Positions 11,498 to 47,715 of a DNA stretch of 64,000 nt are shown one piece after another; position 1 is the stretch's first letter, and every line of letters starts with the position of its first letter. The translations under genes were made by a program, and so were the position numbers. Under the pieces are notes generated by a model, which worked only from the letters and a program-made list of their open reading frames with translations, did not search any database and was not told the DNA's origin. Origin of the DNA: Candidatus Omnitrophota bacterium. GTDB lineage: Bacteria; Omnitrophota; Gorgyraeia; Zapsychrales; JANLHA01. The DNA lies in the NCBI GenBank assembly GCA_023247795.1, contig JAHFFT010000006.1, forward strand, positions 4,664 to 68,663, in the 5' to 3' direction.

Positions 11498-11498
11498 A

Positions 11499-14224
<2,726 letters not shown>

Positions 14225-14232
14225 TGGTATTT

Positions 14233-14350: not shown

Positions 14351-14375
14351 TTCTTTATAGAGAAAGGTTTTCAGC

Positions 14376-17612: not shown

Positions 17613-17792
17613 GAATCGATGTTTTTATCAAAATCATCAGTGATCAAGAGTTGAAGAACGTCGCCGAATCCACAAGAACGGGAGACGATGTTTTCGGGTA
17701 AATCTTACCAAAGGTAAGACGGGAAAATCTGCCAACCGCACCCTTAACTAATCCCGTAGGCGTAGGCAGATATTTTCGGGTCGGTCTCTGGA

Positions 17793-19698: not shown

Positions 19699-22600
19699 GA
19701 AAATGATTGATCTCTGCGCCCGGCAAAAATTTTTGGTTTTGATTTTTTTATTTGCCGCCATCGTCGCTTCGGTTTGGGCGGTGAAAAATATACCGCTCGA
19801 TGCTATTCCTGACCTTTCCGACACCCAGGTCATCATTTATTCCCGCTGGGATCGCAGCCCGGATTTGGTTGAGGATCAAGTCACGTATCCGATCGTTTCC
19901 GCTTTATTAGGAGCACCGGGTGTTAAGGCCATTCGCGGTTTTTCCGATTTCGGGTTCTCTTATGTGTACGTGATTTTCAAAGACGGCACCGATTTGTATT
20001 GGGCGCGAAGCCGGGTTTTGGAATATCTCAGTAAAATCACGTCCCGGCTGCCGGAAGGTGTTAAGACCGAATTGGGGCCGGATGCGACCGGGGTGGGCTG
20101 GGTCTTGCAATACGCCCTGGTCGATAAGAGCGGCAAACATGATTTGGGGGATCTGCGCAGTTTTCAAGATTGGCATTTGCGCTATTGGCTGCAAGCCGTC
20201 CCTGGTGTTGCCGAGGTCGCCTCGGCCGGAGGGTTTGTCAAACAATATCAAATCACCGTCGATCCGCGCAAATTGTTGGCCTATCACATCCCGATCACGA
20301 AAGTTATTGAAGCCGTGCGGCAAGGGAACCAGGAAACCGGTGGCCGCCTAGTCGAGTTTACCGGCGCGGAATACATGATCCGCGGGCATGGCTATGTGAA
20401 ATCAATTGAGGATTTGGAACGGATCGGCCTCGGCGCTGACGTTAACGGCACGCCGATCATCGTCAAAGATGTTGCCCGGGTCGTCCTGGGCGGCGATATC
20501 CGTCGAGGTGTTTTGGATCTCAACGGCCAGGGAGATGTTGTCGGCGGCACCATTGTCATGCGCCAAGGGGAGAACGCCTTAAAGGTGATTGACGCGGTTA
20601 AAGCAAAATTCAAAGCGATCGAACCGTCTTTGCCCGCAGGCGTCAAGATTGAGATCACCTATGATCGTTCCGATCTCATTTTGCGCGCCATGGAGCATCT
20701 TAAGAAACAGTTGCTGGAAGAAATGCTCATCGTCAGTTTGGTCATCTTGGTTTTTTTATGGCATCTGCCGTCGGCCTTCATTCCGATTGTGACGATCCCG
20801 GTCGCGGTATTGATCTCGTTCATTCCGTTGTTGGGAATGAAATTGACGTCCAACATCATGTCGCTGGCCGGCATTGCCATATCCATCGGCATCTTAGTCG
20901 ACGGGGCGATTGTGCAGATGGAAAATGTTTATAAGCGTCTCGAAGAATGGGAGGCCAATGGCCGCCGGGAACAACAACGTGATGTTGTTTTAAGGGCGCT
21001 GAAAGAGGTTGCCCCGTCGGTATTTTTCGCGCTCTTGGTCATTGCGGTATCGTTCTTGCCGATTTTTACACTCTTGGATCAAGAAGGACGTTTGTTCAAA
21101 CCATTGGCTTGGTCAAAGACGTTTGTGATGGCGATCGCCGCTGTTTTGGTGGTCACTTTGAATCCGGTGTTGCGATTGCTATTTACGCGGACCAAGCCTT
21201 TTACCGGACGACCGCGATGGTTCATGAAGTTAGCAAATGGTTTGTTCATCGGCCGTTATTACCCGGAAGAGAAACATCCGATCAGCCGGGTATTATTTTC
21301 GGTGTATGAGCCCGTGTGCCGATTTGTTCTTAAGCACGCGAAGGCAACTATCGTCGCCGCGTTGTTGTTGGTGGCCAGCACGGTGCCCATTGTTCTCAGA
21401 TTGGGTTCGGAATTCATGCCGCCCTTATGGGAAGGACAAATTCTTTATATGCCCATCACCATGCCCGGGATCTCGGTGGCCGAGGCGCAGAAATTATTGC
21501 AGGAACAGGACAGGATTCTTAAAAGTTTTCCGGAGGTTGATAAAGTTTTCGGTAAGGCTGGCCGCGTTGGAAGCGCCACTGATCCGGCACCGCTTTCGAT
21601 GATGGAGACGGTGGTGCTGTTAAAGCCGGAAAAGGAATGGCGTCGGGTCAAAGGACAGCGGATCACCCACGAAGAGTTGATCGCGGAAATGGACAAGGCC
21701 TTAAAAATTTCCGGGACGACCAATGCCTGGACCATGCCGATTAAAAATCGTATCGACATGCTCTCGACGGGGGTGCGCACTCCGATTGGGATCAAAGTTC
21801 TGGGAAGCGATTTGAAAGTGATTGATCAAATCGGTAGGGAGTTGGAGCTGCTGTTAAAAGACGTTCCCGGCACCCGCAGTGTTTTTGCCGAGCGAACCCA
21901 GGGCGGGTATTTTTTGGATTTTGATCTTAAGCGCGATCAGTTGGCCCGTTACCAATTGTCCGTTGCCGACGCGCAAATGACCATCCAATCCGCGATCGGC
22001 GGTGAAAATATCACGACCACGGTTGAGGGTCGAGAACGGTATGGCGTCCAGGTCCGGTATCCTAGGGCATTTCGCGACGACGTGGATCAATTGAGCCGGG
22101 TCTTGATCGCGACACCATCGGGTGCGCAAATTGCCATTGGTCAAGTGGCGGATATTGTCGTGCGTACCGGCCCGTCGATGATCCGTAATGAAAACGGGCT
22201 GCTTGCCGGATATGTTTATGTTGACGTGGCGGGCCGCGACATTGGTACCTATGTCGAAGAGGCAAAGAAAAAAGTGCGTGAGCAGCTCAAGCTTCCCGAA
22301 GCGTACAGTTTGGTTTGGAGTGGGCAATATGAAAATATGCTGCGCGTCCGGGAACGGCTCAAAGTTGTTGTACCGTTCACACTTTTTATCATTGCCTTGT
22401 TGCTTTATTTCAATACCAAATCTTGGGTGAAGACCGGAATCGTTTTATTGGCCGTGCCGTTTTCTTTGGTTGGTGCTTTTTGGCTGTTGTGGATGTTAGG
22501 GTACAATTTATCGATCGCGGTTTGGGTCGGGATGATTGCCTTAATGGGTCTCGACGCTGAAACTGGTGTTTTGATGCTGCTTTTTTTGGATTTGGCGTAT

Positions 22601-22906
22601 CAAGAGGCCTTGCAACGAGGGAAACTGCAATCGGTCGCGCAATTGCGTGAGGCGGTTGTGCATGGCGCGGTGCGCCGGGTGCGTCCGAAAATGATGACGG
22701 TCATGGCCGCCTTATTGGGTTTGCTGCCCATCATGTTTTCTCACGGCGCCGGAGCCGATGTCATGCAGCGCATTGCGGCACCCATGGTGGGTGGACTGAT
22801 CAGTTCTTTTGGCCTGGAACTGTTGGTTTATCCGGCGATTTTTTATCTTTGGAAAGGACGCGGTTTTTCGACAGAAGGGAGGAGCGTCAAAGAAAAGAAT
22901 TTTTGA
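19691..22906 (+). CDS. heavy-metal-efflux family RND transporter (CusA/CzcA-like)
   Basis: 1071 aa, 12-TM RND architecture. N-terminus ...AIPDLSDTQVIIYSRW... is typical of CusA/CzcA. Confidence 0.9.
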   Translation: MIEKMIDLCARQKFLVLIFLFAAIVASVWAVKNIPLDAIPDLSDTQVIIYSRWDRSPDLVEDQVTYPIVSALLGAPGVKAIRGFSDFGFSYVYVIFKDGTDLYWARSRVLEYLSKITSRLPEGVKTELGPDATGVGWVLQYALVDKSGKHDLGDLRSFQDWHLRYWLQAVPGVAEVASAGGFVKQYQITVDPRKLLAYHIPITKVIEAVRQGNQETGGRLVEFTGAEYMIRGHGYVKSIEDLERIGLGADVNGTPIIVKDVARVVLGGDIRRGVLDLNGQGDVVGGTIVMRQGENALKVIDAVKAKFKAIEPSLPAGVKIEITYDRSDLILRAMEHLKKQLLEEMLIVSLVILVFLWHLPSAFIPIVTIPVAVLISFIPLLGMKLTSNIMSLAGIAISIGILVDGAIVQMENVYKRLEEWEANGRREQQRDVVLRALKEVAPSVFFALLVIAVSFLPIFTLLDQEGRLFKPLAWSKTFVMAIAAVLVVTLNPVLRLLFTRTKPFTGRPRWFMKLANGLFIGRYYPEEKHPISRVLFSVYEPVCRFVLKHAKATIVAALLLVASTVPIVLRLGSEFMPPLWEGQILYMPITMPGISVAEAQKLLQEQDRILKSFPEVDKVFGKAGRVGSATDPAPLSMMETVVLLKPEKEWRRVKGQRITHEELIAEMDKALKISGTTNAWTMPIKNRIDMLSTGVRTPIGIKVLGSDLKVIDQIGRELELLLKDVPGTRSVFAERTQGGYFLDFDLKRDQLARYQLSVADAQMTIQSAIGGENITTTVEGRERYGVQVRYPRAFRDDVDQLSRVLIATPSGAQIAIGQVADIVVRTGPSMIRNENGLLAGYVYVDVAGRDIGTYVEEAKKKVREQLKLPEAYSLVWSGQYENMLRVRERLKVVVPFTLFIIALLLYFNTKSWVKTGIVLLAVPFSLVGAFWLLWMLGYNLSIAVWVGMIALMGLDAETGVLMLLFLDLAYQEALQRGKLQSVAQLREAVVHGAVRRVRPKMMTVMAALLGLLPIMFSHGAGADVMQRIAAPMVGGLISSFGLELLVYPAIFYLWKGRGFSTEGRSVKEKNF

Positions 22907-29023: not shown

Positions 29024-30028
29024 GTGCAACATAGACCAGCGCTGTTTTTGACGATAATCGGAGTTTTTCTTTTAGGAGGGCTGACTGGGTGCGATAAAAT
29101 TTCGGTAGTAACAAATTATTTTAAGCAAAAAGTATCGTCGACGAAATCGGAAAAAGAACAACCGGTCGCGGATAAGCCGGTTCCAGCAGAAGTCTCCCCT
29201 GTAATAATCCCGCCCGCAGGTGAAAATAAAGAGCAGGCCACAACTTCACCCACAACTTCAACGGAAGCCAAATCAGATGTCTTAGCCAAAGTGGGCAATT
29301 GGTCAATCACGTTGGAAGAATTTAAAAAGCGTCTTAACGCGCTAAAAGAGATGGCCCCCGAATACAATACGGCGGATGTTGAGCAAAATAAATTGATTTT
29401 AAACGAAGTGGTCAATCAACAACTGCTGGCACAAGAAGCAGATCGTTTGGGCCTCGGACAAAAAGAAGAAGTGGTCCAGGCGGTCAAGGAATTTCGGCAG
29501 ACGGTATTGATCAGGGCTTTGGGCGCACAGTTGACCGAAGGGGTAGCGGCGACCAAGGAAGAGGCGGAAGAATATTACAATACCAATAAAAAAGATTTTG
29601 TGAAGCCCGCGCAATGGAAATTGCGGGAGATTGTCGTCGATAACGAAGCTGATGCCAAAGACATTTTGATCGAACTTTTAAAAGGCACGGACTTCGCGCC
29701 GATGGCGCAGACGCGTTCGAAGGGCAAGACCGCGGCCCAGGGCGGTGAGTTGGAAATGATCAGCGAATTCCAATCAGAGCCGTTGCAAAACGCGGTGAGC
29801 GGATTAGGAAAGGGCGATGTTTCACACGTTTTTAAAGGAGCGGACGGTTATACCATCGTTAAGGTTGATGATAAAATTGGCGGGGAGCAGGTTGAGTTTT
29901 CGGAGGTGGCCAATGATCTGCAAATGCAGTTGACGGGTTTGAAGCAGCAGCAGAAGGTTATGCAGTATATTGAGGACCTGCGAAGTAAGGCCTCGATTGA
30001 CATCAATGCGAAACTTTTAGAGGAGTAG
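29024..30028 (+). CDS. parvulin-type peptidyl-prolyl isomerase lipoprotein (SurA/PpiC-like)
   Basis: Lipobox LLGGLTGC, chaperone-like N-domain and rotamase block ...AAQGGELEMISEF...VFKGADGYTIVKV. Confidence 0.7.
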   Translation: MQHRPALFLTIIGVFLLGGLTGCDKISVVTNYFKQKVSSTKSEKEQPVADKPVPAEVSPVIIPPAGENKEQATTSPTTSTEAKSDVLAKVGNWSITLEEFKKRLNALKEMAPEYNTADVEQNKLILNEVVNQQLLAQEADRLGLGQKEEVVQAVKEFRQTVLIRALGAQLTEGVAATKEEAEEYYNTNKKDFVKPAQWKLREIVVDNEADAKDILIELLKGTDFAPMAQTRSKGKTAAQGGELEMISEFQSEPLQNAVSGLGKGDVSHVFKGADGYTIVKVDDKIGGEQVEFSEVANDLQMQLTGLKQQQKVMQYIEDLRSKASIDINAKLLEE

Positions 30029-30032: not shown

Positions 30033-30821
30033 ATGAATATTGAAAACAAGAAACAAATAGCAATCATTTTGTTAGCGGTTGGATTAGGGCTCGTCGCTGC
30101 TGTTTTAACCGCCAATCATATTCAAGATAGCATCAAAACCGAAACCGCCCGACTTTCCCAGGAATTTGAAAATAAAAAAATGCGGCCGCTTGTCGAAGAG
30201 ATTAAGGATATGCAAGCGGAATTGCAAAAAGTTAAAGACCGGCCGATCCCGCAAATGCCGCAGGTGCAAGCGGCGCTGTCCCTTCCCAAATCCTCGCTGG
30301 CTTTGCGAACACCGGAAGGAAAAAGAGCTTACACGGTTAGGATTGACGCGCTCTCCGCCGTTGGCGGCATGATCAATCCCGGTGACTACGTGGACATCAT
30401 AGCACACATGGATATGCCGGATCCGGTGACGAACGAAAATGAAAAAATTTCCTCGATGATCTTTCAAAACATCCAGGTTCTGGCGGTAGGGGTCAAATTT
30501 CAGGCCCCGGGCGAATATGAAGAGCAGCAGGAAGCCAGGGCGTTGAATATCACCTTCGCGTTATCGCCGGAAGAAGCCAGTTTGCTGTCATTTATTGAGA
30601 AAAACGGCCGGATGCAGCTGGTTTTGCGTCCGCCGGAAGAAACCGCGACCGAGGTCATTCAAGCCGCGAGCTGGAGTTCTTTGGCGGATTATGTTTTTGA
30701 AAAGCAGGGGACTGAGCTGGTGGTTCCCCGTTCTAAAGCGGATATTGAACCGGTGAAATCAGACAAACAAGAAGAGGTCAAGCCCTTTATTCAGATTTTC
30801 CGTGGCGGACAAGCTTTTTAA
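30033..30821 (+). CDS. cpaB: Flp pilus assembly protein CpaB/RcpC
   Basis: N-terminal TM segment and SAF/RcpC-like C-terminus (...INPGDYVDIIAH...). Confidence 0.8.
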   Translation: MNIENKKQIAIILLAVGLGLVAAVLTANHIQDSIKTETARLSQEFENKKMRPLVEEIKDMQAELQKVKDRPIPQMPQVQAALSLPKSSLALRTPEGKRAYTVRIDALSAVGGMINPGDYVDIIAHMDMPDPVTNENEKISSMIFQNIQVLAVGVKFQAPGEYEEQQEARALNITFALSPEEASLLSFIEKNGRMQLVLRPPEETATEVIQAASWSSLADYVFEKQGTELVVPRSKADIEPVKSDKQEEVKPFIQIFRGGQAF

Positions 30822-30901: not shown

Positions 30902-32830
30902 ATGATGCTAACAACTCAGAAAAATTTCATCAAACAGCCCGCGATCATTTCCGTTTTAACCCTTGTGTTTTTCTCTTCTTTGGTTACTGTCCCAAAAGTT
31001 TCTGCCTTACAGGACGTCGTGGATACGATGAAAGAAGACAAGGTCTCCCTCAATAAGGGCGACTTGGTTTCTTTGAAGGTTTCTCAGCTCACGCGGATCG
31101 CGATCAGCAACCCCGGCATCATTGACGTGGTTAACGCTGATGAGAAAGAGATTCTCATCATTGGGCGCGCGGTGGGTGAGACGCCGATTTTTATTTGGGA
31201 TGAAAACGGCAAACGAAAAATCATGGCCCGGGTCATGGAAGAGGAGTTGGATTCTTTGACGCAGAGAATCCAAGAGTTACTGGATGATGCGGATATCAAA
31301 GACGTTGATTTAAAAAAGAACAATTATGAAGGGAAGATCATTGCTTCGGGGCATATCCTTAAGCAAAAAAAGGACGAGTTTGAAAAAATCATGGGTCAGT
31401 TCAGCACCAATGTGATCAATATGGTCAAAGAGGAAGAAGATCTCGTCCAAATCGATGTGCAGATTTCGGAATTGAATACAACGCTTTCAAAAGAATTGGG
31501 TTTTGACTGGACGGCCGGAAGTTCCGATCATATCGTTTTGGGGTATCAGGAAGTGCTGCCGACGTTTGCCGGCCGCAGCGTCGAGGACTGGTTCAAGCTT
31601 GGCCGATTTGACCGGACCAACGCCATCTTGGCGACGGTGGACTTATTGATCCAAGAAGGAAAGGCGCGCACCTTATCGAAGCCGAGTATTCTTGTCTCTA
31701 ACGGTGAGGAAGCCTCATTTCACGTCGGAGGCGAAATCCCGGTCCGGACCACTACGACCTCAACCGGAGGCGCGTCGGTCCAGCAAAACGTGAGTTTTAA
31801 GCAATACGGTATTGATTTGACTGTTACGCCAGAGATCAAAGATGGAAAAGTGGACATGACATTGCATGTTTCCGTCCGCGATATTGATGCCGCGAACGCC
31901 GTCGGCGATGACGTGGCTTTTACCAACCGGCAAGCCAATACCAAAGTCCTTTTGGATGATAAACAAACCATCGTGATCGCCGGTCTCATCAAGCAGCAGC
32001 AGGGCGAGACGGTTAATCGAGTTCCATTTTTAAGTTCCATTCCTTTGGTAGGATTTCTTTTTCGACATACCGCTACTCCGACTCCCAATCAAGATCAGGA
32101 GTTGGTGGTTTCTTTGACACCCACCATTGTTCGGCAAAAACGACCGGGGCGGGATATTGGCCCGGAGCCTAATCGGCCAATTTCGGATCAGGTTAAAGAG
32201 GAAAAGCTTCCCGAGGTTAGTAAATTAGAGGAAGCGAAGAAAGCAGATGCCGTTGCAACGACTGAGAGCCAAGAGAGCCAAGCGGAGCAAAATTTAAATA
32301 ATGTCGATTTGCCGGAATTTGCAGAGCAGCCCGTCGCTGTGCCAGAGCAGCCGGCTGCGGTGGCCGCCCCTGAGGAGGAGCCAAGTGAACAAACCATTAC
32401 CTTAGCACCATACGGGGATGTTGATAATACGACGAACGTCGTTGCTGCCCCTGTTGCTCCTTCAGCCCAGCCCCAGGAAAGTCCAAAGGTGGCGGACGAA
32501 GGCTCTACCAATGCCATAGCCACTTATGTGCAAGCTATTCAAAAACGGATTTCAAATACCATTTCTTATCCTTATGAAGCCCGTGAGAACAATTGGCAGG
32601 GAACGGTCAAGTTGAATTTGGTTTTGGAGAAGGACGGTAACTTGAAAGAGGCGAAAGTGGAACAGTCGTCGGGATATGATGTTTTTGATAAGGACGCGGT
32701 CAATACGGCATTGATTTTGGCACCTTTCGATCCCTTTCCAGCTGAAATCGATTTGGAAGAGCTGGTTGTCACTGTTCCGATTGTTTATAGTCAGGAAGCG
32801 GTTTTTGGCGATAGCGAGCAGCAGAACTAG
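30902..32830 (+). CDS. cpaC: Tad secretin CpaC/RcpA with C-terminal TonB_C-like domain
   Basis: Secretin core ...VPFLSSIPLVGFLFRHT...VVSLTPTIVRQ, a Pro/Glu/Ala-rich linker, and a C-terminus YVQAIQKRISNTISYPYEARENNWQGTVKLNLVLEKDGNLKEAKVEQSSGYDVFDKDAVNTALILAPFDPFP that resembles TonB_C. Confidence 0.8.
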   Translation: MMLTTQKNFIKQPAIISVLTLVFFSSLVTVPKVSALQDVVDTMKEDKVSLNKGDLVSLKVSQLTRIAISNPGIIDVVNADEKEILIIGRAVGETPIFIWDENGKRKIMARVMEEELDSLTQRIQELLDDADIKDVDLKKNNYEGKIIASGHILKQKKDEFEKIMGQFSTNVINMVKEEEDLVQIDVQISELNTTLSKELGFDWTAGSSDHIVLGYQEVLPTFAGRSVEDWFKLGRFDRTNAILATVDLLIQEGKARTLSKPSILVSNGEEASFHVGGEIPVRTTTTSTGGASVQQNVSFKQYGIDLTVTPEIKDGKVDMTLHVSVRDIDAANAVGDDVAFTNRQANTKVLLDDKQTIVIAGLIKQQQGETVNRVPFLSSIPLVGFLFRHTATPTPNQDQELVVSLTPTIVRQKRPGRDIGPEPNRPISDQVKEEKLPEVSKLEEAKKADAVATTESQESQAEQNLNNVDLPEFAEQPVAVPEQPAAVAAPEEEPSEQTITLAPYGDVDNTTNVVAAPVAPSAQPQESPKVADEGSTNAIATYVQAIQKRISNTISYPYEARENNWQGTVKLNLVLEKDGNLKEAKVEQSSGYDVFDKDAVNTALILAPFDPFPAEIDLEELVVTVPIVYSQEAVFGDSEQQN

Positions 32831-32953: not shown

Positions 32954-35116
32954 ATGGAATCAAGAACGATCACGGTTTTCAGCAATAAAGGCGGCGTTGG
33001 CAAGACCTTTATTGCGGTTAATCTCGCGACCGCCCTTGCCGCCACCGGCAAGCGGGTTCTGCTTTTGGATTTGGATTTTCAGGCCTACCACGATATGTCA
33101 AGGATGCTGAACTTGGTTCCCCGCCAATCTTTGGCCAATCTCATCTCGGAAATCGAATCCATGGAAGATCCCGAGACGATCACCAAATTTACAATCACGC
33201 ACGACAGCGGCTTGGATTTTTTGCCGGCGGTTGTTCATACCAAACAAATCGGACACATCACCGCGAGCAATATCAAACCGTTTTTTAAGAAGGCCAGGCA
33301 GATTTATGATTACATCATTGTCGACGCTGGCAAGGCCTTCAGCGAGATTCTGCTCACGGTCCTCGATCATTCCAATTTGATCCTTTTGGTCGCGACCCCC
33401 GACATCTTAGCAGTCTATCAAATCAAGTCGTGCTTGGAGTTGTTAACCAGTCTGCATTTCCCTTTGAAGATCGTTAAAGTGATTCTTAATCGCTCGGAGA
33501 GCCGTGGTGGTGTCGCCTGGCAAGAGGTGCGTTCAGCGCTTTCCTGTGAGATTTTTGGTCAGATCCCGTCGGACGGGAAGGCCGTTGGCATGGCGCTCAA
33601 TCGTGGCGTTCCAGTCGTAGTCGATAGTCCGAAGGCCGCTGTTTCGGAAGCGTTCAATAAAATGGCCAACGATCTTAAAAGGGATGAAATTTATGTCCAG
33701 GCCGCGGAATTGGCCAAGGTGCGGCAGTCCGAGGATTTGGACAAGTCCGTCAAATTTTGGGAAAAATTTGGGATCACTCAGCATTCGTTGGGGGGAGGGC
33801 ATGATTATTTCGCTAAGGAAGAAGATGAGATTGTTACGTTGAAGAAAAAAATCCATGAGAAGCTGGTGAACCGTTTGCACGTCGAGGATCTCAGTCCGGA
33901 GGTCTTAGGGGATCCGCACAAAGCCCAAGAGCTGAAGAACTCGGCGCAAAAGATCGTCGGGAATCTCTTGATGGAAGAAAAGGGCGGAATGATCGCCTCG
34001 CATGAAGAACGCAGCCGCATTGTTAAGGAGATTGTCGATGAAGCGCTGGGGCTGGGAGCACTTGAAGAATTTTTAGCCGATCCAGACGTGACCGACATCA
34101 TGGTGAACAGCAAAGAAGAGCTCTATATTGAAAAAAATGGCAAATTGATTTTGACCAACAAACGATTTTTATCCGATCAGCAGATGCGTTCGATTATGGA
34201 CCGGATCATCGCCCCGTTAGGCCGGCGGATTGATGAGTCAGTGCCCATGGTGGACGCCCGTCTTCCCGACGGGTCGCGGTTCAACGCGATCATCCCACCA
34301 TTGTCGTTGAACGGCCCGATGATTACGATTAGAAAATTTGGCGTTGAGCGATTGGAACTCAACGATTTGATGGAAAAATATCGCAGCTTCAGCCCGCCCA
34401 TGCAGGATTTTCTCAATGCCTGCGTGTTGGGCCGGCAGAATGTTGTGGTTTCCGGAGGGACCGGGGCGGGAAAAACGACTTTGCTCAATGTGTTGTCTTC
34501 GTTCATCCCCGATGATGAAAGGATCATCACCATTGAGGACGCGGCCGAATTGCGGCTGAAGAAACAGCATTGGGCGCGTCTGGAGGCCCGGCCGTCGAAC
34601 GTGGAAGGCCGCGGGTCGGTCTCCATCCGCGAGTTGTTTATCAATTCGCTGCGTATGCGGCCAGACCGCATCATCATTGGGGAATGCCGAGGGGCCGAGG
34701 TTTTGGATATGTTGCAGGCGATGAATACCGGCCACGATGGATCGATGACCACCTTGCACGCCAATTCAACACGGGATGTGATGGTTCGGATGAGTTCGAT
34801 GATTTTGTTGAGCGGTATCGAACTGCCGACCCACGCCATCAATCAAATGATCTCATCGGCCATTGACGTGATCGTGCACGTGGCCCGTCTCTCCGACGGG
34901 AGCCGCAAGATCACCGGCGTTACCGAAATTGTTGGAATGCTTCCGGATTATCAGTTGGACCTCAGAGACATTTTTTATTTTAAGCCTTCCGGCCGGTCCG
35001 AGGAGGGGGTGGTTTTAGGCGAATTTTTCGCGACCGGATACATCCCCAAATGCTATGACGACTTTATGACGATGGGTTTTAAGTTGGATAAGTCGATCTT
35101 CAATAAATCCACGTAA
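32954..35116 (+). CDS. fused CpaE/TadZ-like ParA/MinD ATPase plus CpaF/TadA secretion ATPase (720 aa)
   Basis: N-terminal NKGGVGKT deviant Walker A (MinD/ParA fold, about 260 aa). C-terminal VSGGTGAGKTTLLN...IITIEDAAEL...GHDGSMTTLHANS (VirB11/CpaF ATPase). Confidence 0.8.
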   Translation: MESRTITVFSNKGGVGKTFIAVNLATALAATGKRVLLLDLDFQAYHDMSRMLNLVPRQSLANLISEIESMEDPETITKFTITHDSGLDFLPAVVHTKQIGHITASNIKPFFKKARQIYDYIIVDAGKAFSEILLTVLDHSNLILLVATPDILAVYQIKSCLELLTSLHFPLKIVKVILNRSESRGGVAWQEVRSALSCEIFGQIPSDGKAVGMALNRGVPVVVDSPKAAVSEAFNKMANDLKRDEIYVQAAELAKVRQSEDLDKSVKFWEKFGITQHSLGGGHDYFAKEEDEIVTLKKKIHEKLVNRLHVEDLSPEVLGDPHKAQELKNSAQKIVGNLLMEEKGGMIASHEERSRIVKEIVDEALGLGALEEFLADPDVTDIMVNSKEELYIEKNGKLILTNKRFLSDQQMRSIMDRIIAPLGRRIDESVPMVDARLPDGSRFNAIIPPLSLNGPMITIRKFGVERLELNDLMEKYRSFSPPMQDFLNACVLGRQNVVVSGGTGAGKTTLLNVLSSFIPDDERIITIEDAAELRLKKQHWARLEARPSNVEGRGSVSIRELFINSLRMRPDRIIIGECRGAEVLDMLQAMNTGHDGSMTTLHANSTRDVMVRMSSMILLSGIELPTHAINQMISSAIDVIVHVARLSDGSRKITGVTEIVGMLPDYQLDLRDIFYFKPSGRSEEGVVLGEFFATGYIPKCYDDFMTMGFKLDKSIFNKST

Positions 35117-35117: not shown

Positions 35118-35465
35118 GTGACCCGCATCATCAATCAAACCAAACAAACTGTTATCGCAACCGAAGGAAGAATCGCCGACACCATGGTCTCTCGCCTGGT
35201 AGGACTTTTAAACCGCGAATCGATGGCTCGACGAGAAGCTCTTATCATAACCCAATGCCGCGGCATTCACATGTTTTTTATGCGGTTCGCGATTGACGTG
35301 ATTTTTGTCGACGGGGACGATCGGATTGTTGGTTTGGTCAGAAATATTAAGCCGTTTTGTATCAGCCCGTATTTTTGGCAGGCATGCTCAGCGATTGAAT
35401 TGCCTTCTGGAGTGATTGATCAAACCCGGTGTGCGATGGGGGACAGGATTGTTATTGCTCCATAG
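35118..35465 (+). CDS. DUF192 family protein
   Basis: ...GLLNRESMARREALIITQCRGIHMFFMRFAIDVIFVDGDDRIVGL... fits the DUF192 (COG1430) pattern. Confidence 0.55.
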   Translation: MTRIINQTKQTVIATEGRIADTMVSRLVGLLNRESMARREALIITQCRGIHMFFMRFAIDVIFVDGDDRIVGLVRNIKPFCISPYFWQACSAIELPSGVIDQTRCAMGDRIVIAP

Positions 35466-35935: not shown

Positions 35936-37720
35936 ATGGGAGTTATTCATAAACTCAAACAAGAAGTTGTACAGTTCATTGTCCAAAAGAAGAAGGATCT
36001 CCCGCAGGTCAGCTGTCGAAAGATGGCGGATTTTGTCCATACCGCATTTGAATTAAATCTCTCTAAGTCGGCGATTAACAACATTTTACAGAGATCGACG
36101 TTAAGTAGTCCGGTGGGCAGGCGGCCACAAGACCCCGGCCGAAAAGAATCGGTTGTTCAACAGGGTGTTAAAGCCAAATCTTTTAAAATTCCCGATCAGA
36201 AGAAAATATTAGGGGGACAGTCCCCAAAAAGGGACTGTCCCCCTCCTGGTTTTCCTCCTGTTCCCCCGCTTCAACCGTCTAAGTCTCCTCTTCCTCCGGT
36301 CGCACAGAGTCAGCGTAAATTCAGTGTGAAAAGAGCCTCTTCATTGCAGCCAAAAGAGGGACTGTCCCCTAAAGGGGACAGTCCCCCTAAGCTACCAAAG
36401 ACGCTTTATGATCATATGGGCAGCATTTTTCTAAAGGCGGCAGAATGGGAGATTTCCGACGGGCCACTTTTGGGAAAAATACTAAAGGATCATCTGCCGG
36501 CCGGATTTTCTCAGCAAGAGCTGGAGCAGGCCGGGGAAGTGCTTTTATTTTTGCAAGTATTTGGGATTAAAAGACTTGAAGATTTTATTCATTACACAAA
36601 AGACGGATTATGGGCGATTAACGGTCTAAAAACCAAAATCCCATTTTTCAAGATCAATGATTTAGCACGATTTTTGAATACCGTTTCGGGGGTAAGAGCA
36701 CAGCTGCAAATACACATTTCACAATTAGTTACAAAAGCAGCCTATATCAAGGTGGTCTTTAAAGCCGGTAATTGCTTATGGGTAGATGCCCTGGGCGCCG
36801 GGCTGAGTTCTGCGAAGAGAAAAGGGCCCAATTTTTCGTCCATCAACCAGATCACCACAACAATGATCAATCAATGGTTAATGCCGCGTGAGCCGCTGAT
36901 TCTGGGTGCTGTTCAGGATGGCCAATCGCTTTATCATTTGGCGGCAGGCTTTGCTAATGACACGAATCGAAAATTACATAAGATCATGGCTTTTGGTTAT
37001 GACGATCAAGAGATCATTGCCTTTGATTCCTTCATTGACACAAAACGATCATTTCTCGTCGGACTATGGCCGTCGCAGGAGTTTTATCAGCAACTTTTTG
37101 GATCGCAAGATTTTGTTTATAAGAAAAATTTTGAAATGACCGATGGCCATAAGCAGGTTGCCTATGATGAAATGACCGTTAAAATCAAAGATCCGGTTGG
37201 GGAGTTACATCCCATTTCGTTAAGGGCGGTGGGGTTTGAAATGCCAGGGAACCAGCCGCAAATGGGCGTTATTTTAACCAATATGAGTGATAAGGAAATG
37301 ACAGCAGCGGGACTCATCAGTGCTTATGTTCAGCGCTGGCCCTGTTTTCAAGAATCGAAATCGCTACAAAATTTTCTGCAACCCAATGTCTCGGAAGAGT
37401 ATGTGTCTCAAGATGAAAATATTTCCAACGATTTATCCGAGGCCAATGATTTGCATATTGCACTTAACTATTTGAATCGCTACGGCCAAGAGGCCTTTTT
37501 TCCATCAGCATACGGCGATTTAGACCTATCATCAATGACATCAATATTTTACAACATAGCCGGATATTTACAGTGTACCAAAGAGCTGGTAAAAGTTGAA
37601 CTGATTATGCCAAGGGAAGATTATCCTTATCAAAATGATTTGGCTCTGGCGGTCAGGAAGGTCAATGAGCGCAATATCAGCGATTTTCAGGGAAGAAAAT
37701 TATTTTTGTCATGTTTATAA
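35936..37720 (+). CDS. 594-aa transposase-like protein (N-terminal HTH; C-terminal Y-x2-R-W...E...K like the IS4/IS1634 C1 motif) carrying two in-frame REP insertions
   Basis: REP doublets at 36212-36243 and 36358-36387 are translated as ...GGQSPKRDCPPPG... and ...KEGLSPKGDSPPK.... The YVQRWPCFQESK block resembles DDE-transposase C1. The family call is tentative. Confidence 0.35.
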   Translation: MGVIHKLKQEVVQFIVQKKKDLPQVSCRKMADFVHTAFELNLSKSAINNILQRSTLSSPVGRRPQDPGRKESVVQQGVKAKSFKIPDQKKILGGQSPKRDCPPPGFPPVPPLQPSKSPLPPVAQSQRKFSVKRASSLQPKEGLSPKGDSPPKLPKTLYDHMGSIFLKAAEWEISDGPLLGKILKDHLPAGFSQQELEQAGEVLLFLQVFGIKRLEDFIHYTKDGLWAINGLKTKIPFFKINDLARFLNTVSGVRAQLQIHISQLVTKAAYIKVVFKAGNCLWVDALGAGLSSAKRKGPNFSSINQITTTMINQWLMPREPLILGAVQDGQSLYHLAAGFANDTNRKLHKIMAFGYDDQEIIAFDSFIDTKRSFLVGLWPSQEFYQQLFGSQDFVYKKNFEMTDGHKQVAYDEMTVKIKDPVGELHPISLRAVGFEMPGNQPQMGVILTNMSDKEMTAAGLISAYVQRWPCFQESKSLQNFLQPNVSEEYVSQDENISNDLSEANDLHIALNYLNRYGQEAFFPSAYGDLDLSSMTSIFYNIAGYLQCTKELVKVELIMPREDYPYQNDLALAVRKVNERNISDFQGRKLFLSCL

Positions 37721-38312
37721 TACGAATACTAATATATAACAATTCTGTAACTTGACATTTAAAATAAGAGCATGTTATACTTTAAAAGTGAAGAGGGGGG
37801 AGATCTGGCTGCTTATCAGGAGCAGGGAATGATTGTAAGTTTTTTTGAACAAATAAGATACATATTCCAGAATGGCCTCGCATTTCTTTTTTTAAGATAT
37901 CATCCTTTTGAACATCATCTCCATCCATCGCGGGCTGGAGATTTTTTATTGACTGCAAAGTCTTTCGAGAAAAGGCGTGTTGCAAGCGATCTGACCTTGC
38001 TTTTAGCAGGGATGATTCTGTGGGCCCATCCAGTGGTCTGCAGATGCCGGCTGCAAAATTTGGCCGGTAATAGAGTCCGAGAGTGAATTCTGCTTGAAGC
38101 GCGGGGATGCTTTAAGGCGGACAAGGGTTATTTGAAACGTTAGGACAGAAACATTTGAACAAAGGCGACAACAGCAAATTTTTAAAAAAATCAGGCCTTT
38201 GATCAGAGAAGTTTGGTCTTAACCGCAAATGACTTAAGAAAAGGGTTCACACCTGAAGGGATTTGTAAAGTTGTTTTAGCAACGTTAGTAGTCATTTTGA
38301 AGGAGGATAGCA

Positions 38313-38543
38313 ATGTATAAGAAAAGGAATCAAAAAAAGAAAGGGCAGAGTACGCTGGAATATATCATTTTAGTCACCGGTGTGATCGCCGTTCTTATTA
38401 TTTTTTTAAAGCCGGATACAGGTATTTTCACCCAGGCCTTCAATGGTGTTTTGGGTAGCGCCAAAGACGGCATGGTTAATATGTCAAACCGGTTATCGGG
38501 ATCTTGGCCTTCGGATCAAGTGGGTACAAAAACCGGGGGATAA
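38313..38543 (+). CDS. Flp/Tad-type prepilin A (76 aa)
   Basis: Leader MYKKRNQKKKG, then QSTLEYIILVTGVIAVLIIF (Gly at -1, Glu at +5 class-III prepilin motif). GGAGG RBS. Confidence 0.7.
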   Translation: MYKKRNQKKKGQSTLEYIILVTGVIAVLIIFLKPDTGIFTQAFNGVLGSAKDGMVNMSNRLSGSWPSDQVGTKTGG

Positions 38544-38578
38544 GATCAGCAAAGAAATTAAAAACGGAGGAACAATCC

Positions 38579-39010
38579 ATGTTTAGAAAGTTAATGAAGA
38601 ATAAGAAAGCGCAGCAGACCGCGGAGTACGCGTTGCTGATTTCGCTGGTGGTCGCGGCGGTGATCGCGATGCAGACTTACGCTCAGCGCGCGATTCAAGG
38701 ACGTATCCGCGATGCCTCGTCGTATTTGGTTGAGAAAACACCGGAACTCGGAGACATTAATCAATACGAACCTTATTATCTAAAAACCGATTATCATATT
38801 GACTCTTTTGATGAAACGACCGAGAGTCATACGAATGAAATCAAAGGCGGTAAATTCGAGTCTGACACCTACTCTGAACGCACCAGACAGAAAGATGGGT
38901 TTCAGGCTTCAGATTATAAGTCGGTTGTGACTGAAGATAGTTTTAAGCCCAGTGGAGGATCGGGCACCAGTACCGGAGGAACGCCTCCAGCTGGCGGCAC
39001 GACCCCGTAA
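38579..39010 (+). CDS. TadE-like pseudopilin B
   Basis: MFRKLMKNKKA/QQTAEYALLISLVVAAVIAM (TadE-type N-terminus). GGAGG RBS at 38565. Confidence 0.65.
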   Translation: MFRKLMKNKKAQQTAEYALLISLVVAAVIAMQTYAQRAIQGRIRDASSYLVEKTPELGDINQYEPYYLKTDYHIDSFDETTESHTNEIKGGKFESDTYSERTRQKDGFQASDYKSVVTEDSFKPSGGSGTSTGGTPPAGGTTP

Positions 39011-39073
39011 TAGAGGATGCTAAATTGATCCAATTCTCTTTGCAGAGAAATTAAATTGAGGAGGAGGCGAGAC

Positions 39074-39397
39074 ATGTTTAAATTTTTAAGGAAGATGAAA
39101 GGGCAGAGCACCCTGGAATACGCGGTTTTGATCATCATTGTCATTGGTGCTTTGTTGTCCATACAAATGTATATTAAGCGCGGCATCCAAGGTCGTCTAC
39201 GAAGTGCTGCCGACGATATCGGCGATCAGTATGATCCAGGTAACGTCAATTATCGTGTTCACACAACTGTTGTTAGTAACACGCACGATACATTTATAGA
39301 CGGGAAAACCAATTCGACCTTATTGCAGCCGGAAAAAACAATCACAACGGTCAATTCCGAGATTGTTAACGCGGAGCAGACCTTTTGGGGGAGATGA
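39074..39397 (+). CDS. prepilin-like protein C (GDQYDP family)
   Basis: MFKFLRKMKG/QSTLEYAVLIIIVIGALLSI...DDIGDQYDPGN. GAGGAGG RBS. Confidence 0.65.
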   Translation: MFKFLRKMKGQSTLEYAVLIIIVIGALLSIQMYIKRGIQGRLRSAADDIGDQYDPGNVNYRVHTTVVSNTHDTFIDGKTNSTLLQPEKTITTVNSEIVNAEQTFWGR

Positions 39398-39469
39398 TTG
39401 GATCTTCATGATACCCGCAAAATGGAGAAGCATTTTGTTAAGTTAACAAGAGGGCCCAGGAGGACAGCA

Positions 39470-39700
39470 ATGATAAAGAAAAGGAATCAAAAAAAGAAAG
39501 GGCAGAGCACGCTGGAATATATCATTTTGGTCACCGGTGTGATCGCCGTTCTTATTATTTTTTTAAAACCGAATGGAGGCATTTTTACCAAGGCCTTCGA
39601 TGGTGTTTTGAATAGCGCCAAAGACGGCATGGTTAATATGTCAAACCGGTTATCGGGATCTTGGCCTTCGGATCAAGTGGGTACAAAAACCGGGGGATAA
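39470..39700 (+). CDS. prepilin A' (paralog of 38313)
   Basis: MIKKRNQKKKGQSTLEYIILVTGVIAVLIIFL..., nearly identical to A. Confidence 0.7.
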   Translation: MIKKRNQKKKGQSTLEYIILVTGVIAVLIIFLKPNGGIFTKAFDGVLNSAKDGMVNMSNRLSGSWPSDQVGTKTGG

Positions 39701-39735
39701 GATCAGCAAAGAAATTAAAAACGGAGGAACAATCC

Positions 39736-40119
39736 ATGTTTAGAAAGTTAATGAAGAATAAGAAAGCGCAGCAGACCGCGGAGTACGCGTTGCTGATTTC
39801 GCTGGTGGTGGCAGCGGTGATCGCGATGCAGACCTACGCCCAGCGCGCGATTCAAGGACGTATCCGCGGCGCATCGGCGTGGCTGGTTTCCGCGACAAAT
39901 GAGATTGGAACAACGAACCAGTATGAACCGTATTATTTGGACACCAAATATGAAATTGACAGCTATGATAAAACCACGGAGGTTCATACGAATCAAGCCG
40001 GCACCGGCGGTAAGTTTGACACCGATACTTATTCTGAGCGCACCAGAAAAGCGGGTGGTGCCCAAGTTTCAACGTATGATATGCCTATAAAGACCGATGA
40101 AACACAGTGGAAAAATTAA
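39736..40119 (+). CDS. TadE-like pseudopilin B' (paralog of 38579)
   Basis: N-terminal 60 aa identical to B. The C-terminal half has diverged. Confidence 0.65.
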   Translation: MFRKLMKNKKAQQTAEYALLISLVVAAVIAMQTYAQRAIQGRIRGASAWLVSATNEIGTTNQYEPYYLDTKYEIDSYDKTTEVHTNQAGTGGKFDTDTYSERTRKAGGAQVSTYDMPIKTDETQWKN

Positions 40120-40207
40120 TAACCGCTGAGGGTGTTCAGATTTCAAGCGGAGGTTAAGAGGATTAAAATCTCTTTTTAGAGAAATTCAATTAAGGAGGAG
40201 GCAAGAC

Positions 40208-40540
40208 ATGTTTAAATTTTTAAGGAGGATGAAAGGGCAAAGCACCCTGGAATACGCGGTATTGATTATCATTGTCATCGGGGCCTTGCTGTCGATACAA
40301 ATGTATATCAAGCGTGGTATCCAAGGCCGGTTGCGCAGTGCGGCCGACGACATCGGCGATCAGTACGATCCAGGTAACACCAATTATGTTAGAACAACCG
40401 AGGTTGCCAGCAATACGAGGGATACTTTTAAAGCCGGCATTACGAATTCTGTTTTACTAGATGATGAGACGACCACGACAATTGTGAATAGTACAATTAT
40501 CAATGCCGAGCAGACCTTTTGGGGAAATGAGAAAAAGTAG
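40208..40540 (+). CDS. prepilin-like protein C' (paralog of 39074)
   Basis: MFKFLRRMKGQSTLEYAVLIIIVIGALLSIQMYIKRGIQGRLRSAADDIGDQYDPGN. C-terminus diverged. Confidence 0.65.
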   Translation: MFKFLRRMKGQSTLEYAVLIIIVIGALLSIQMYIKRGIQGRLRSAADDIGDQYDPGNTNYVRTTEVASNTRDTFKAGITNSVLLDDETTTTIVNSTIINAEQTFWGNEKK

Positions 40541-40595
40541 TAAAATTATGGAATTCTCCGAAATAGCGGCGTTGCATTTTTTTATGGGAGGATGA

Positions 40596-40757
40596 ATGTT
40601 GGGTTGGCGTAAAAGAGGAAAGACCGGTCAGAATTTGGTCGAATACGCGATTGTTATCGCGGTGGTGGCGTCGGCGATGTACGCGATGAGCACCTATGTC
40701 TTTCGTTCTGTTCAATCAACCCAGCAGATGATCCAGCGGGAGTTTTCCCGTCAATAA
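40596..40757 (+). CDS. flp: canonical Flp pilin (53 aa)
   Basis: Manual translation: MLGWRKRGKTG/QNLVEYAIVIAVVASAMYAMSTYVFRS... Classic Flp motif G-x-x-x-V-E-Y-A-I-V. Under 60 aa, so absent from the ORF track. Confidence 0.7.
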   Translation: MLGWRKRGKTGQNLVEYAIVIAVVASAMYAMSTYVFRSVQSTQQMIQREFSRQ

Positions 40758-40837
40758 ATTGAGTATGTCATTAAGACATTTTGGGGTATCAAAGGCAATG
40801 CCTCAAAATGAAAAAGGCAAATAAGTAAAATAAGCAT

Positions 40838-40888
40838 GGCTTACTTTAAAGAAGATTTCTCATCTTGAAGTAAGCCTTGTTTTTTCTT
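40838..40888 (+). terminator. Rho-independent terminator after flp
   Basis: 8-bp stem GGCTTACT/AGTAAGCC, then TTGTTTTTTCTT. Confidence 0.55.
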
Positions 40889-40896
40889 AAACGTGT

Positions 40897-40960
40897 TCCC
40901 CGCTCCCTAGCCCTCCCCGCAGAGGAAAGGGAAAAAGATCTTAGCTCAATGGGGGAGGGA
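40897..40960. repeat. palindromic repeat family B copy
   Basis: CCCCGCTCCCTAGCCCTCCCCGC...AATGGGGGAGGGAAG matches the copy at 24918-24974. Confidence 0.5.
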
Positions 40961-40982
40961 AGTTGTGATGAGAGGTTGAGGC

Positions 40983-41402
40983 ATGTTTAAAAATTTACGA
41001 GACAATAAGGGCCAAGGCATCGCGGTGCAATATGTGCTGGTCTTTTTTATCGTGATTGCCTTTGTTTCGTCGATGTCGGTTTATGTCCGTCGAGTTTTGC
41101 AAAGCCGTATCCAGGGTGCCGGCGATTTTTTAGTGAAGCAAGTGTATGCCATCCATTCCAACGCGGAAATGAATTTTTTAGGGAACCTGGTCCGAGAATA
41201 CGAACCGTATTATGTTCAGTCGGACAGTCGACGGTTTACCAACAGCGATACGTTAAGACGGGAAGATGTTTTTGCCCCAGCCACGAATGTCAGTGTTTAT
41301 CGGATGGACATGGACGATAGCACAGCCGTGAAATCCGTATCGAAGCAGAAGCGGCCGATCGATGCCCTGAAAGATCAGGGCCTTCAGCCGCCGCACCTGT
41401 AA
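40983..41402 (+). CDS. TadE-like pseudopilin paralog (139 aa)
   Basis: ...NKGQGIAVQYVLVFFIVIAFV... hydrophobic prepilin-like N-terminus, with the Glu at +5 replaced by Gln. Confidence 0.5.
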   Translation: MFKNLRDNKGQGIAVQYVLVFFIVIAFVSSMSVYVRRVLQSRIQGAGDFLVKQVYAIHSNAEMNFLGNLVREYEPYYVQSDSRRFTNSDTLRREDVFAPATNVSVYRMDMDDSTAVKSVSKQKRPIDALKDQGLQPPHL

Positions 41403-41417
41403 GAGCAGAGGAGTAAG

Positions 41418-41753
41418 ATGAGATTTGGTCATCGAGAAAACGCCCAGACATTTTTGGAATACTCGCTTTTGATCGGGATTGTGGTGGCGGTTTTGATGGC
41501 CATGTCGCCGATGTTGCGGCGATCGACGCAGGCGATGATTAAAGTGGTTTCCGATCAGGTCGGGGACCAGGTCAATTCCGAACAAGAAGGCGGTGACCAG
41601 GGGCATTTGGATTCCGTGAATACCATAACACGGGTGGATCGGCAGATCAGCACCATTGATCGTTTGGGGACGAGAAGGATCGATTATGATAAGGATTCGA
41701 CATTTACTGATTCGAGCGTGATTGTGAACCAAGGATTTCGGGAAACGAATTGA
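41418..41753 (+). CDS. prepilin-like protein (111 aa)
   Basis: ...ENA/QTFLEYSLLIGIVVAVLMAM.... Confidence 0.55.
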   Translation: MRFGHRENAQTFLEYSLLIGIVVAVLMAMSPMLRRSTQAMIKVVSDQVGDQVNSEQEGGDQGHLDSVNTITRVDRQISTIDRLGTRRIDYDKDSTFTDSSVIVNQGFRETN

Positions 41754-41808
41754 TTGTGAATTGAATAGTGAATTAGAGAAGAGTGAAATAAGGAGCGAGG
41801 TGTCAAAA

Positions 41809-42120
41809 ATGAGGCAAAGAGGACAAAGCACGTTAGAGTATATGATTCTGCTGATTTTGATCATCGCCGCGTTCATCGCGATCGGTAACTATTTTGGCCG
41901 CGGGGTGTTGGGGCGCTGGAAGGCCGCGGTGGATGATTTGGGGGATCAATATGATCCGCGGTTAACCAACGGCAAAGTGACGGTCAGTTTGTCGGCCAAT
42001 ATGGAAAGCCGGGTTGTTTCCGTTCCTGATGAGACCCGTGAAGGCGTATGGACGATTCGTACTGATCAATCCAACTCTCTTGAGCGGCGTTCGGGATTCA
42101 CCAGCGTCGGAGGGTTTTAA
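41809..42120 (+). CDS. prepilin-like protein (GDQYDP family)
   Basis: MRQRG/QSTLEYMILLILIIAAFIAI...DDLGDQYDPRLTN. AAGGAG RBS. Confidence 0.6.
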   Translation: MRQRGQSTLEYMILLILIIAAFIAIGNYFGRGVLGRWKAAVDDLGDQYDPRLTNGKVTVSLSANMESRVVSVPDETREGVWTIRTDQSNSLERRSGFTSVGGF

Positions 42121-43855: not shown

Positions 43856-43869
43856 ACGAGCAGCCATAG

Positions 43870-47667: not shown

Positions 47668-47715
47668 TAGATCAATCCGCCCCTTCAATGGGGGAGGTCA
47701 GGTGGGGGTTTTTCA

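Follow-up and report, generated by a model that had tools for sequence, protein, structure and literature searches.

A stretch of 64,000 nucleotides from a Candidatus Omnitrophota bacterium (assembly GCA_023247795.1, contig JAHFFT010000006.1, positions 4,664 to 68,663, forward strand; called the window in what follows) holds a Tad/Flp pilus locus, in which the gene for the outer-membrane secretin continues past the channel-forming part into a TonB-type C-terminal domain (CTD). The secretin-TonB_C gene, at 30902-32830 on the plus strand in window coordinates, is one uninterrupted open reading frame (ORF) in the ORF list, with an ATG start and 642 codons plus the stop. A Shine-Dalgarno-like motif, AAGGAAG, lies about 12 nucleotides 5' of the start codon. 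From its N-terminus, the protein consists of the following parts:

30902..31006, plus strand: Sec-type signal peptide, residues 1-35, read from the translation; probable cleavage between VSA and LQ, without a lipobox Cys
31043..31213, plus strand: CpaC/RcpA-type N-terminal beta domain (T2SS-T3SS_pil_N, PF13629), residues 48-104; Pfam 45.8 bits, cut-off 23
31247..31501, plus strand: second periplasmic alpha/beta domain, N1-like, residues 116-200; AlphaFold2 secondary structure, predicted local distance difference test (pLDDT) about 90
31646..32134, plus strand: secretin pore domain (PF00263), residues 249-411; Pfam 152.3 bits, cut-off 27.5
32135..32497, plus strand: disordered acidic linker rich in Glu, Ala and Pro, residues 412-532, delimited by pLDDT and the homolog alignment
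32498..32797, plus strand: TonB-type CTD with a leading helix, residues 533-632; the Pfam TonB_C core is residues 554-629 (32561-32788)

The translation begins with the hallmarks of a signal peptide (a basic n-region, a hydrophobic core and an AXA-like site), and residues 12-26 are helical in the full-length AlphaFold2 model, which was built on 58 homologs. No other hydrophobic helix was found in the protein in the translation, the Pfam matches or the model. The secretin core is predicted with confidence, and the predicted template modelling score (pTM) of the full-length model is low, 0.47. In this model the N-terminal domain (residues 48-104) is all-beta, with a pLDDT of about 90, and the N1-like domain is composed of a helix (116-129), strands (135-153), a second helix (154-165) and further strands (171-191). 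The PF00263 match is full-length, covering model positions 2-169 of 169. The secretin part matches secretins in the Protein Data Bank (PDB) by sequence at 2e-28 to 1e-15 overall, the A. caldus secretin 8jvb at 2e-28 and RcpA 8odn at 9e-23, and it matches secretins in Foldseek with a probability of 1.0. By sequence and predicted fold the protein is assigned to the secretin superfamily (PF00263). No STN or Secretin_N domain was matched in the protein by Pfam at E <= 0.1. The presence of PF13629, the absent N0/STN domain and the content of the locus identify it, at the level of sequence, as a Tad/Flp (type IVc) secretin of the RcpA/CpaC type.

An earlier note on this DNA had described the product as a CpaC/RcpA-type Tad secretin that is fused through a low-complexity linker to a TonB_C-type domain, and the sequence profiles, the predicted fold and the operon context all agree with this description. 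The peptides quoted there, ...VVSLTPTIVRQ at the end of the secretin core and YPYEARENNWQG...PFDPFP near the C-terminus, are both present verbatim in the translation. The linker, which had been called Pro/Glu/Ala-rich, contains 14 % Glu, 13 % Ala and 12 % Pro (residues 412 to about 535) and is predicted to be disordered, with a pLDDT below 50 over residues 417-530. Both Pfam families proposed for the two ends of the protein score above their cut-offs: Secretin as listed above, and TonB_C (PF03544) over residues 554-629 with 56.0 bits (E 5.6e-15, cut-off 24.6). The NCBIfam model tonB_Cterm (TIGR01352) gives 50.5 bits (cut-off 27.1).

The nature of the CTD was examined further by profile and by structure. 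A profile made from 21 CTDs finds as its best match in the PDB the H. pylori TonB (6SLY/5LW8, about 1e-12), followed by further TonBs from about 1e-6, HasB at 1e-4 and TolA at 1e-3; Pfam TolA does not match the window secretin. Residues 533-637 have a pLDDT above 90 in the full-length model, with the elements in the order helix-helix-strand-strand-helix-strand, and a model of the CTD alone has a pLDDT of 85. The structure prediction that the earlier note had suggested as a check thus gives a TonB-type fold: the top 25 Foldseek matches of the CTD model in the PDB are all CTDs of TonB, TolA-III, HasB or FusB, and the best of them is 5LW8, with a TM-score of 0.77 normalised to the target. Since the profile search ranks TonB first and the structural matches are all of this kind, the CTD is, judged from its sequence and model, a genuine TonB-type domain that is nearer to TonB than to TolA. 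Nine of its positions are invariant in 58 sequences (Y542, P557, G567, G579, S590, G591, D596, P608 and P626), and the residues that follow it at the end of the protein are unconserved and gappy in the alignment. The CTD is acidic among the homologs, with a median net charge of -5 that is never exceeded into the positive range.

The fusion was followed in 80 loci, the best among species-representative genomes, using hidden Markov models from our own alignment. The secretin and the CTD lie in one uninterrupted ORF in 79 of the 80. In the exception (L034, 856-3166) they occupy two overlapping frames and the break falls within the linker; a frameshift in sequencing, or else pseudogenisation of recent date, is the probable cause. 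Among 379 homologs, nearly all of the 120 best protein clusters listed, which share 37-59 % identity, combine PF13629, PF00263 and PF03544, and the clusters with the fusion come from NCBI, JGI, ENA and Logan. The closest relative (91 % identity) belongs to an Omnitrophota metagenome-assembled genome from groundwater. The 80 loci are labelled either as Omnitrophota or with placeholder labels of other phyla (Planctomycetales, Phycisphaerae, Elusimicrobia), and the latter are taken to be of the same lineage. On these sequences the fusion is the rule across Omnitrophota and is conserved throughout the phylum. Hundreds of such fusion sequences are already present in databases, where they are named 'TonB family protein' or, at JGI, 'pilus assembly protein CpaC'.

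It might be argued that a sequencing or assembly frameshift had joined a secretin gene to a separate TonB-like gene downstream, a possibility that the earlier note had named as one that would overturn its reading. The overlapping separate frames of L034 and a homolog that stops right after the secretin domain, 50 nucleotides from its contig end (P0116), could be quoted in its favour. The continuous ORF in 79 of 80 independent species-level assemblies and the same architecture in nearly all of the 120 best clusters refute it, and an apparently CTD-less homolog (P0104) simply runs off its contig; the chance of such an artefact is negligible. CTD-less family members were also sought as a contrast set and no clean case was found: besides P0104, P0116 is ambiguous, having linker-like sequence beyond its stop, and the top CTD matches of 100-376 residues, where inspected, are 5'-truncated fragments of fusions.

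The mean pairwise identity is 0.50 in the N-terminal domain, 0.44 in the second periplasmic domain, 0.57 in the pore, 0.13 in the linker and 0.56 in the CTD core. Because the CTD core is conserved to the same extent as the pore, the appendage is, by this measure, under purifying selection as strong as that on the channel itself. The linker, in contrast, varies from 32 to 228 residues in 79 genomes (median 78), with a median net charge of -14.5 and an unconserved sequence, and would be a tether, not a ruler. Eight of the 80 secretins have two CTDs in tandem (L007, L010, L011, L013, L014, L016, L024 and L042). Secretin proteins with two TonB_C domains also include P0125, P0174 and P0192. P0192, and by its length probably P0174, are divergent secretins of about 1050-1090 residues. 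In P0192, which lies in the same gene context, the two CTDs are set apart from the pore and from each other by long K/E/R-rich segments that resemble TolA domain II.

Related domains are found on other proteins. A word-index search with the CTD alone returned a single fragment, so an exhaustive profile search was used instead. At E <= 1e-3 this gave 50,587 proteins, of which 96 reached E <= 1e-30. Among the top matches inspected, the secretin-attached domains, including gene fragments, score 98-150 bits per domain against the CTD profile, those of TolC-like OEP proteins 35-81 and those of the divergent secretins P0174 and P0192 53-65. Because the scores fall into tiers, the secretin CTDs look like a specialised clade. 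The TolC-like OEP outer-membrane proteins (P0138, P0259, P0250, P0236 and P0270-P0281; loci L083-L085) carry one to six TonB_C modules at the N-terminus, an architecture shared by 12 of the 14 homologs of P0138. The taxon is known for one of these clusters only, and its label is Omnitrophota. In L083 the TolC-like TonB_C gene adjoins a further giant ORF. Since arrays of four or five TonB_C copies also occur on inner-membrane proteins of the BlaR1/M56 type, TonB_C is, by its distribution, a promiscuous periplasmic module.

The genes around the secretin were identified by scanning nearly all window ORFs of at least 100 codons, including every plus-strand ORF from 27.6 to 50 kb except 37772-38086 and duplicate pilin copies:

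29024-30028, plus strand: SurA/PpiC-like lipoprotein chaperone (Pfam Rotamase, SurA_N), directly upstream of cpaB in 70 of the 80 loci
30033-30821, plus strand: CpaB/RcpC alignment-complex protein (Pfam RcpC 86 bits; NCBIfam pilus_cpaB 100 bits, cut-off 71), in 79 of 80 loci
32954-35116, plus strand: TadZ(ParA/MinD)-TadA(CpaF) fusion ATPase of 720 residues (Pfam AAA_31/CbiA/ParA, residues 4-241; T2SSE, 366-648), in 76 of 80 loci
35118-35465: DUF192 protein
35936-37720, plus strand: conserved protein of 594 residues without a significant Pfam match, only a weak N-terminal HTH_32; shared by 55 of 80 Tad loci, with an identity of about 26 %
38313-42120, plus strand: Flp-type pilin and pseudopilin genes with class III signal peptides (Pfam Class_IIIsignal; GQSTLEY motifs in the translations)
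42126-48102: several unassigned proteins, including a Cys-rich one of 1265 residues
48121-49952, plus strand: TadB and TadC platform proteins (Pfam T2SSF in both ORFs)

By its gene content this is a complete Tad/Flp pilus locus, which lies about 20 kb from dnaA in an Omnitrophota chromosome. A TadZA fusion of the same kind has been described in Bdellovibrio (bioRxiv 10.64898/2026.07.08.737194). The 594-residue protein is a candidate conserved component or regulator of this Tad system. The SurA-like lipoprotein, possibly a dedicated chaperone for the secretin, has a long variable tether rich in Pro, Ala, Thr and Ser. In the listed homologs that bear a lipobox, the residue after the lipobox Cys is almost always Asp (Glu in two), and Asp at this position is an inner-membrane retention signal in E. 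coli. No TadD-like tetratricopeptide repeat (TPR) gene and no CpaD/OmpA-like gene was found among the scanned window ORFs. Genes for ExbB, ExbD, TolQ, TolR or a TonB-dependent receptor were likewise not found among these ORFs or in the annotated related loci L081 and L086.

The pilin cassette is tandemly duplicated (38313-39397 and 39398-40540, plus strand), each copy comprising three genes, for a 76-residue Flp-like pilin, a pilin-like protein of about 150-168 residues and another of about 110 residues; the N-terminal halves of the copies are near-identical. Between the pilins and TadB lie two Cys-rich proteins without Pfam matches, of 475 residues (42126-43553, plus strand) and 1265 residues (43870-47667, plus strand), the larger of which has a hydrophobic pilin-like segment near its N-terminus. 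Both may be TadG-like components or tip adhesins. An IS200/IS605-type Y1 transposase gene (50006-50545, minus strand) stands between tadC and a giant open frame (51163-63999, plus strand). This frame has at least 4279 codons and runs past the window end, directly after the Tad locus; its only Pfam match is Peptidase_C39-like, at residues 189-313. It fits the pattern of a giant ORF next to a Tad cassette that has been reported for Omnitrophota (bioRxiv 10.64898/2026.06.07.730766).

On the other side of the locus, the replication-origin region (4420-16835) contains parB, parA and yidC on the minus strand and dnaA, dnaN, gyrB and gyrA on the plus strand, and the cumulative GC skew is lowest at about 8-10 kb of the window. 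An origin of the stretch from a mobile element or plasmid was rejected on the basis of these replication genes and of the skew minimum, which place the window in the chromosome. In L081 the same gene order recurs: gyrA, nitrilase, malate/lactate dehydrogenase, SurA-like gene, cpaB, secretin. A c-di-AMP (cyclic di-AMP) riboswitch (17652-17776, plus strand; 47.4 bits, gathering score 38) precedes a small ORF (17940-18305) and an HlyD/HMBD-AcrB efflux pair (18388-22906).

By combining these observations with what is known of other Tad secretins, it is possible to propose how the appendage may work. Each subunit of the secretin would end in a flexible acidic tether bearing a TonB-type CTD. The C-termini of secretins are on the periplasmic side of the barrel, where the S-domains and the RcpA tip meet lipoprotein pilotins (PMC10499894), and the CTDs should therefore be periplasmic, one per subunit. 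By analogy with RcpA, an assembled ring would have 13-14 subunits and the same number of TonB_C modules, all suspended in the periplasm no farther than roughly 10 nm from the outer membrane. The shortest tethers, of about 32-35 residues, would reach only this far; since they are too short for the periplasm, the ligand has to be close to the outer membrane. Within reach would be the layer of the wall, outer-membrane proteins in their periplasmic parts, the N-domain rings of the secretin itself and the top of the CpaB ring. Without any coupling to the proton motive force, the CTDs would hold the channel to the layer of the cell wall. They would bind peptidoglycan itself or, through the beta-strand augmentation that typifies this fold, a protein associated with the wall or the outer membrane. 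Such anchoring would position the secretin and brace it against the load of the pilus. In other Tad systems the same job is done in trans by accessory proteins at this site, the TadD pilotin and the OmpA-like lipoprotein CpaD.

That the CTD is a passive periplasmic anchor or assembly module acting in cis, in place of TadD or CpaD, is the reading that we favour, with a probability of about 45 %. It is suggested by the occurrence of related modules on two unrelated families of outer-membrane channels in variable copy number, which points to a generic envelope ligand and not to a Tad-specific one. It is suggested also by the lack of a TadD-like or CpaD-like gene in the locus and by the situation in Caulobacter, where the peptidoglycan-binding-type lipoprotein CpaD, encoded just 3' of cpaC, forms a belt around the secretin barrel and is essential, and where an early assembly intermediate joins the secretin to peptidoglycan (PMC13170226). 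In P. aeruginosa RcpA's C-terminal tip binds the TadD pilotin, and this tip is essential (PMC10499894). Omnitrophota keep a complete peptidoglycan synthesis (bioRxiv 10.64898/2026.06.07.730766). A tie between the channel and the cell wall, which the earlier note had put forward, is a plausible, putative role.

Several points weigh against this reading. For the CTDs of TonB and TolA, the only binding mode known to be proven by structures is one in which the domain captures a short strand of peptide from a partner protein. Direct binding of peptidoglycan by the TonB CTD was reportedly described by Kaserer et al. in 2008, and no support for it was met in the literature searched. The acidity of the CTD disfavours an electrostatic attraction to anionic wall polymers. 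Taken together, the proven binding mode of the fold and this acidity favour a protein strand over peptidoglycan as the ligand. Tandem copy number, considered as a sign of a polymer ligand, was also weakened, since arrays occur on the inner-membrane BlaR1/M56-type proteins and repeat number is thus not specific for such a ligand. Finally, TadD, CpaD, Pal, OmpA, ExbBD or TonB-dependent receptors could be encoded outside the 64-kb window.

If the ligand is a protein, it could belong to the pilus machine itself. The CTD would then capture a TonB-box-like strand on one defined component and so recruit this partner during assembly or passage of the pilus. Candidates would include CpaB/RcpC, the SurA-like lipoprotein chaperone with its tether, and the precursor of a minor pilin or of an adhesin. 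The sequence of the CTD is closest to genuine TonB CTDs (1e-12 for the H. pylori TonB versus 1e-3 for TolA), and conservation is high in its beta3 edge strand (E620, T624, P626, Y629), the partner of the TonB box in complexes of TonB, although this identifies no ligand. The separate score tier of the secretin CTDs, above the 81 bits or less of all others among the top matches inspected, fits co-evolution with a dedicated partner. The synteny with the SurA-like gene, cpaB and TadZA is strong (70, 79 and 76 of the 80 loci). Strand addition is moreover already used in the Tad machine, where RcpC binds the N-domain of RcpA by beta-sheet completion (PMC12307814). These points are countered by the related modules on TolC-like proteins, which have no Tad context, by the presence of a second CTD in eight of the 80 genomes, which is unexpected for a one-to-one site, and by the variable tethers of the SurA-like lipoproteins, in which no conserved strand-like or TonB-box-like motif was found ahead of SurA_N. 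Docking of this kind is possible, if somewhat unlikely. Still less probable is a binding site on the secretin itself, where the CTD would fold back on the periplasmic N-domains of its own or a neighbouring subunit and make the ring more stable or control the periplasmic gate. Such fold-back would be the cis counterpart of the interaction between ExeB/GspB and its secretin and of the proposed contact between TonB3 and PilQ's N0 domain. Assembly of the ExeD secretin depends on the TonB-like ExeB, which binds the secretin's periplasmic domain (PMC4098917), type IVa pilus assembly requires PocAB-TonB3 (PMC5285504), a linker of the minimum length of about 32-35 residues would suffice to reach the N-domain rings just below the barrel, and the fusion can be read as a Rosetta-stone link between two domain families. 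The window secretin, however, has no N0/STN domain, on which both the ExeB and the TonB3 hypotheses rest; the TonB_C modules on TolC-like proteins would be left unexplained; and the full-length model, judged from its low pTM only, gives no sign that the CTD is held in one place.

As a member of the domain family of the TonB energy transducer, the CTD might instead link the secretin to an ExbBD/TolQR-type proton-motive-force motor or to TonB-dependent transporters, passing force or a signal to or from the pilus channel. TonB paralogues do influence type IV pilus function in Pseudomonas (PMC5285504) and natural transformation in Acinetobacter (PMC8811193). Force transduction by TonB and TolA, however, needs an N-terminal transmembrane helix that binds the motor (PMC12204202), the feature that defines a TonB energy transducer. 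In the window secretin a signal peptide is found instead, on a chain that would be anchored in the outer membrane, and therefore the protein cannot transduce force in the manner of TonB. The linker, as short as about 32 residues and unconstrained in sequence, and the lack of ExbB/ExbD/TolQ/TolR or TonB-dependent receptor genes in the scanned ORFs and in L081 and L086 argue in the same direction. The 'energising partner' that had been considered in the earlier note is accordingly disfavoured, and energy coupling is very improbable. The fusion is real, conserved and mechanistically suggestive; its function is putative, and the CTD is most likely a built-in envelope anchor, not an energy coupler.

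The favoured reading, an anchor in cis, can be extended. Possibly, the TonB CTD was repurposed in Omnitrophota, with inverted topology, into a lineage-wide system of outer-membrane-anchored tethers for unrelated channels (the Tad secretin and TolC-like ducts). These tethers would take the place of pilotins and of OmpA/CpaD-type anchors, and would hold the channels to the cell wall or to an envelope scaffold that they share. So broad a role is speculative and, in our estimate, unlikely. If true, the secretin fusion would be the first evidence of the 'Rosetta-stone' kind that the TonB family and secretins are physically linked, as has long been suspected (ExeB-ExeD, TonB3-PilQ).

Tad pili have been proposed as the organelle of attachment or predation in ultra-small, host-dependent Omnitrophota (PMC10066038). 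A TonB CTD that acts from the outer-membrane side without a motor would widen the roles presumed for this domain family. The annotation of Omnitrophota is affected as well. As automatic pipelines name the fusions 'TonB family protein', the pilus machinery may be under-called in these genomes and TonB systems over-called. A 2026 survey of Omnitrophota genomes, which possibly counted such genes as 'TonB-domain content', reports genes with a 'TonB C-terminal domain' flanking giant-protein loci and does not use the word secretin (bioRxiv 10.64898/2026.06.07.730766). No description of a secretin-TonB_C fusion was found in the literature searched. TonB is not mentioned in the Omnitrophota Tad analysis or in the RcpA-TadD, RcpC, Kil and Bdellovibrio Tad papers, and neither secretins nor Omnitrophota come up in a 2025 survey of how TonB/TolA evolved.

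The closest known counterparts of the window secretin are P. aeruginosa RcpA (PDB 8ODN) and C. crescentus CpaC, which also have the pil_N and pore domains and no N0/STN domain, and whose operon partners CpaB/RcpC, TadZ, TadA, TadB/C and Flp-type pilins are common to the window locus. RcpA ends at residue 416, shortly after the pore, with a four-residue tip that binds TadD (PMC10499894), in agreement with the earlier statement that no standard Tad secretin was known to have such an appendage; the window secretin continues for about 230 residues, with the linker and TonB_C extension in place of the short tip. The TadD-binding tip is not universal among Tad systems, and CpaC relies on the separate lipoprotein CpaD (PMC13170226), whereas the window locus has neither a TadD-like nor a CpaD-like gene. 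A conserved anchor built into the secretin would thus be a third solution, beside TadD in Pseudomonas and CpaD in Caulobacter. The position of the locus also has a parallel: the Tad locus of Velamenicoccus archaeovorus, which is expressed in co-culture, lies at 12-30 kb of the chromosome (Seymour et al., PMC10066038) and is origin-proximal like that of the window.

Accessory modules that tie a pilus secretin to peptidoglycan, as is proposed here for the CTD, are represented by the AMIN domains of PilQ (PMC5285504, PMC10653833) and by C. crescentus CpaD. Their folds are AMIN or OmpA-like, unlike the TonB_C fold of the window CTD, for which peptidoglycan binding is putative, and AMIN is N-terminal whereas the window CTD is C-terminal. 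TolC-like OEP proteins with TonB_C arrays resemble the window secretin in combining an outer-membrane channel with related modules, and differ in the channel family, the N-terminal position of the modules and their larger number. In the type II secretion system (ExeB/GspB with ExeD) and the type IVa pilus (PocAB-TonB3 with PilQ), a TonB-family protein is likewise linked to the assembly or localisation of a secretin (PMC4098917, PMC5285504). ExeB/GspB and TonB3, however, are separate inner-membrane proteins and their proposed contact is N0, whereas the window secretin has its CTD fused and no N0. With TonB itself (PF03544; H. pylori 5LW8/6SLY, E. coli 2GSK/2GRX) the window CTD shares the motifs YP, EG, DG, SSG, D..A and IPI.YS and the helix-helix-beta-beta-helix-beta fold, and it differs in being acidic and in having no motor-binding helix. 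In TonB, a helix in the inner membrane carries the CTD, engages ExbBD and extends up to the outer membrane; in the window secretin this arrangement would be inverted, with the CTD hanging from the outer-membrane channel.

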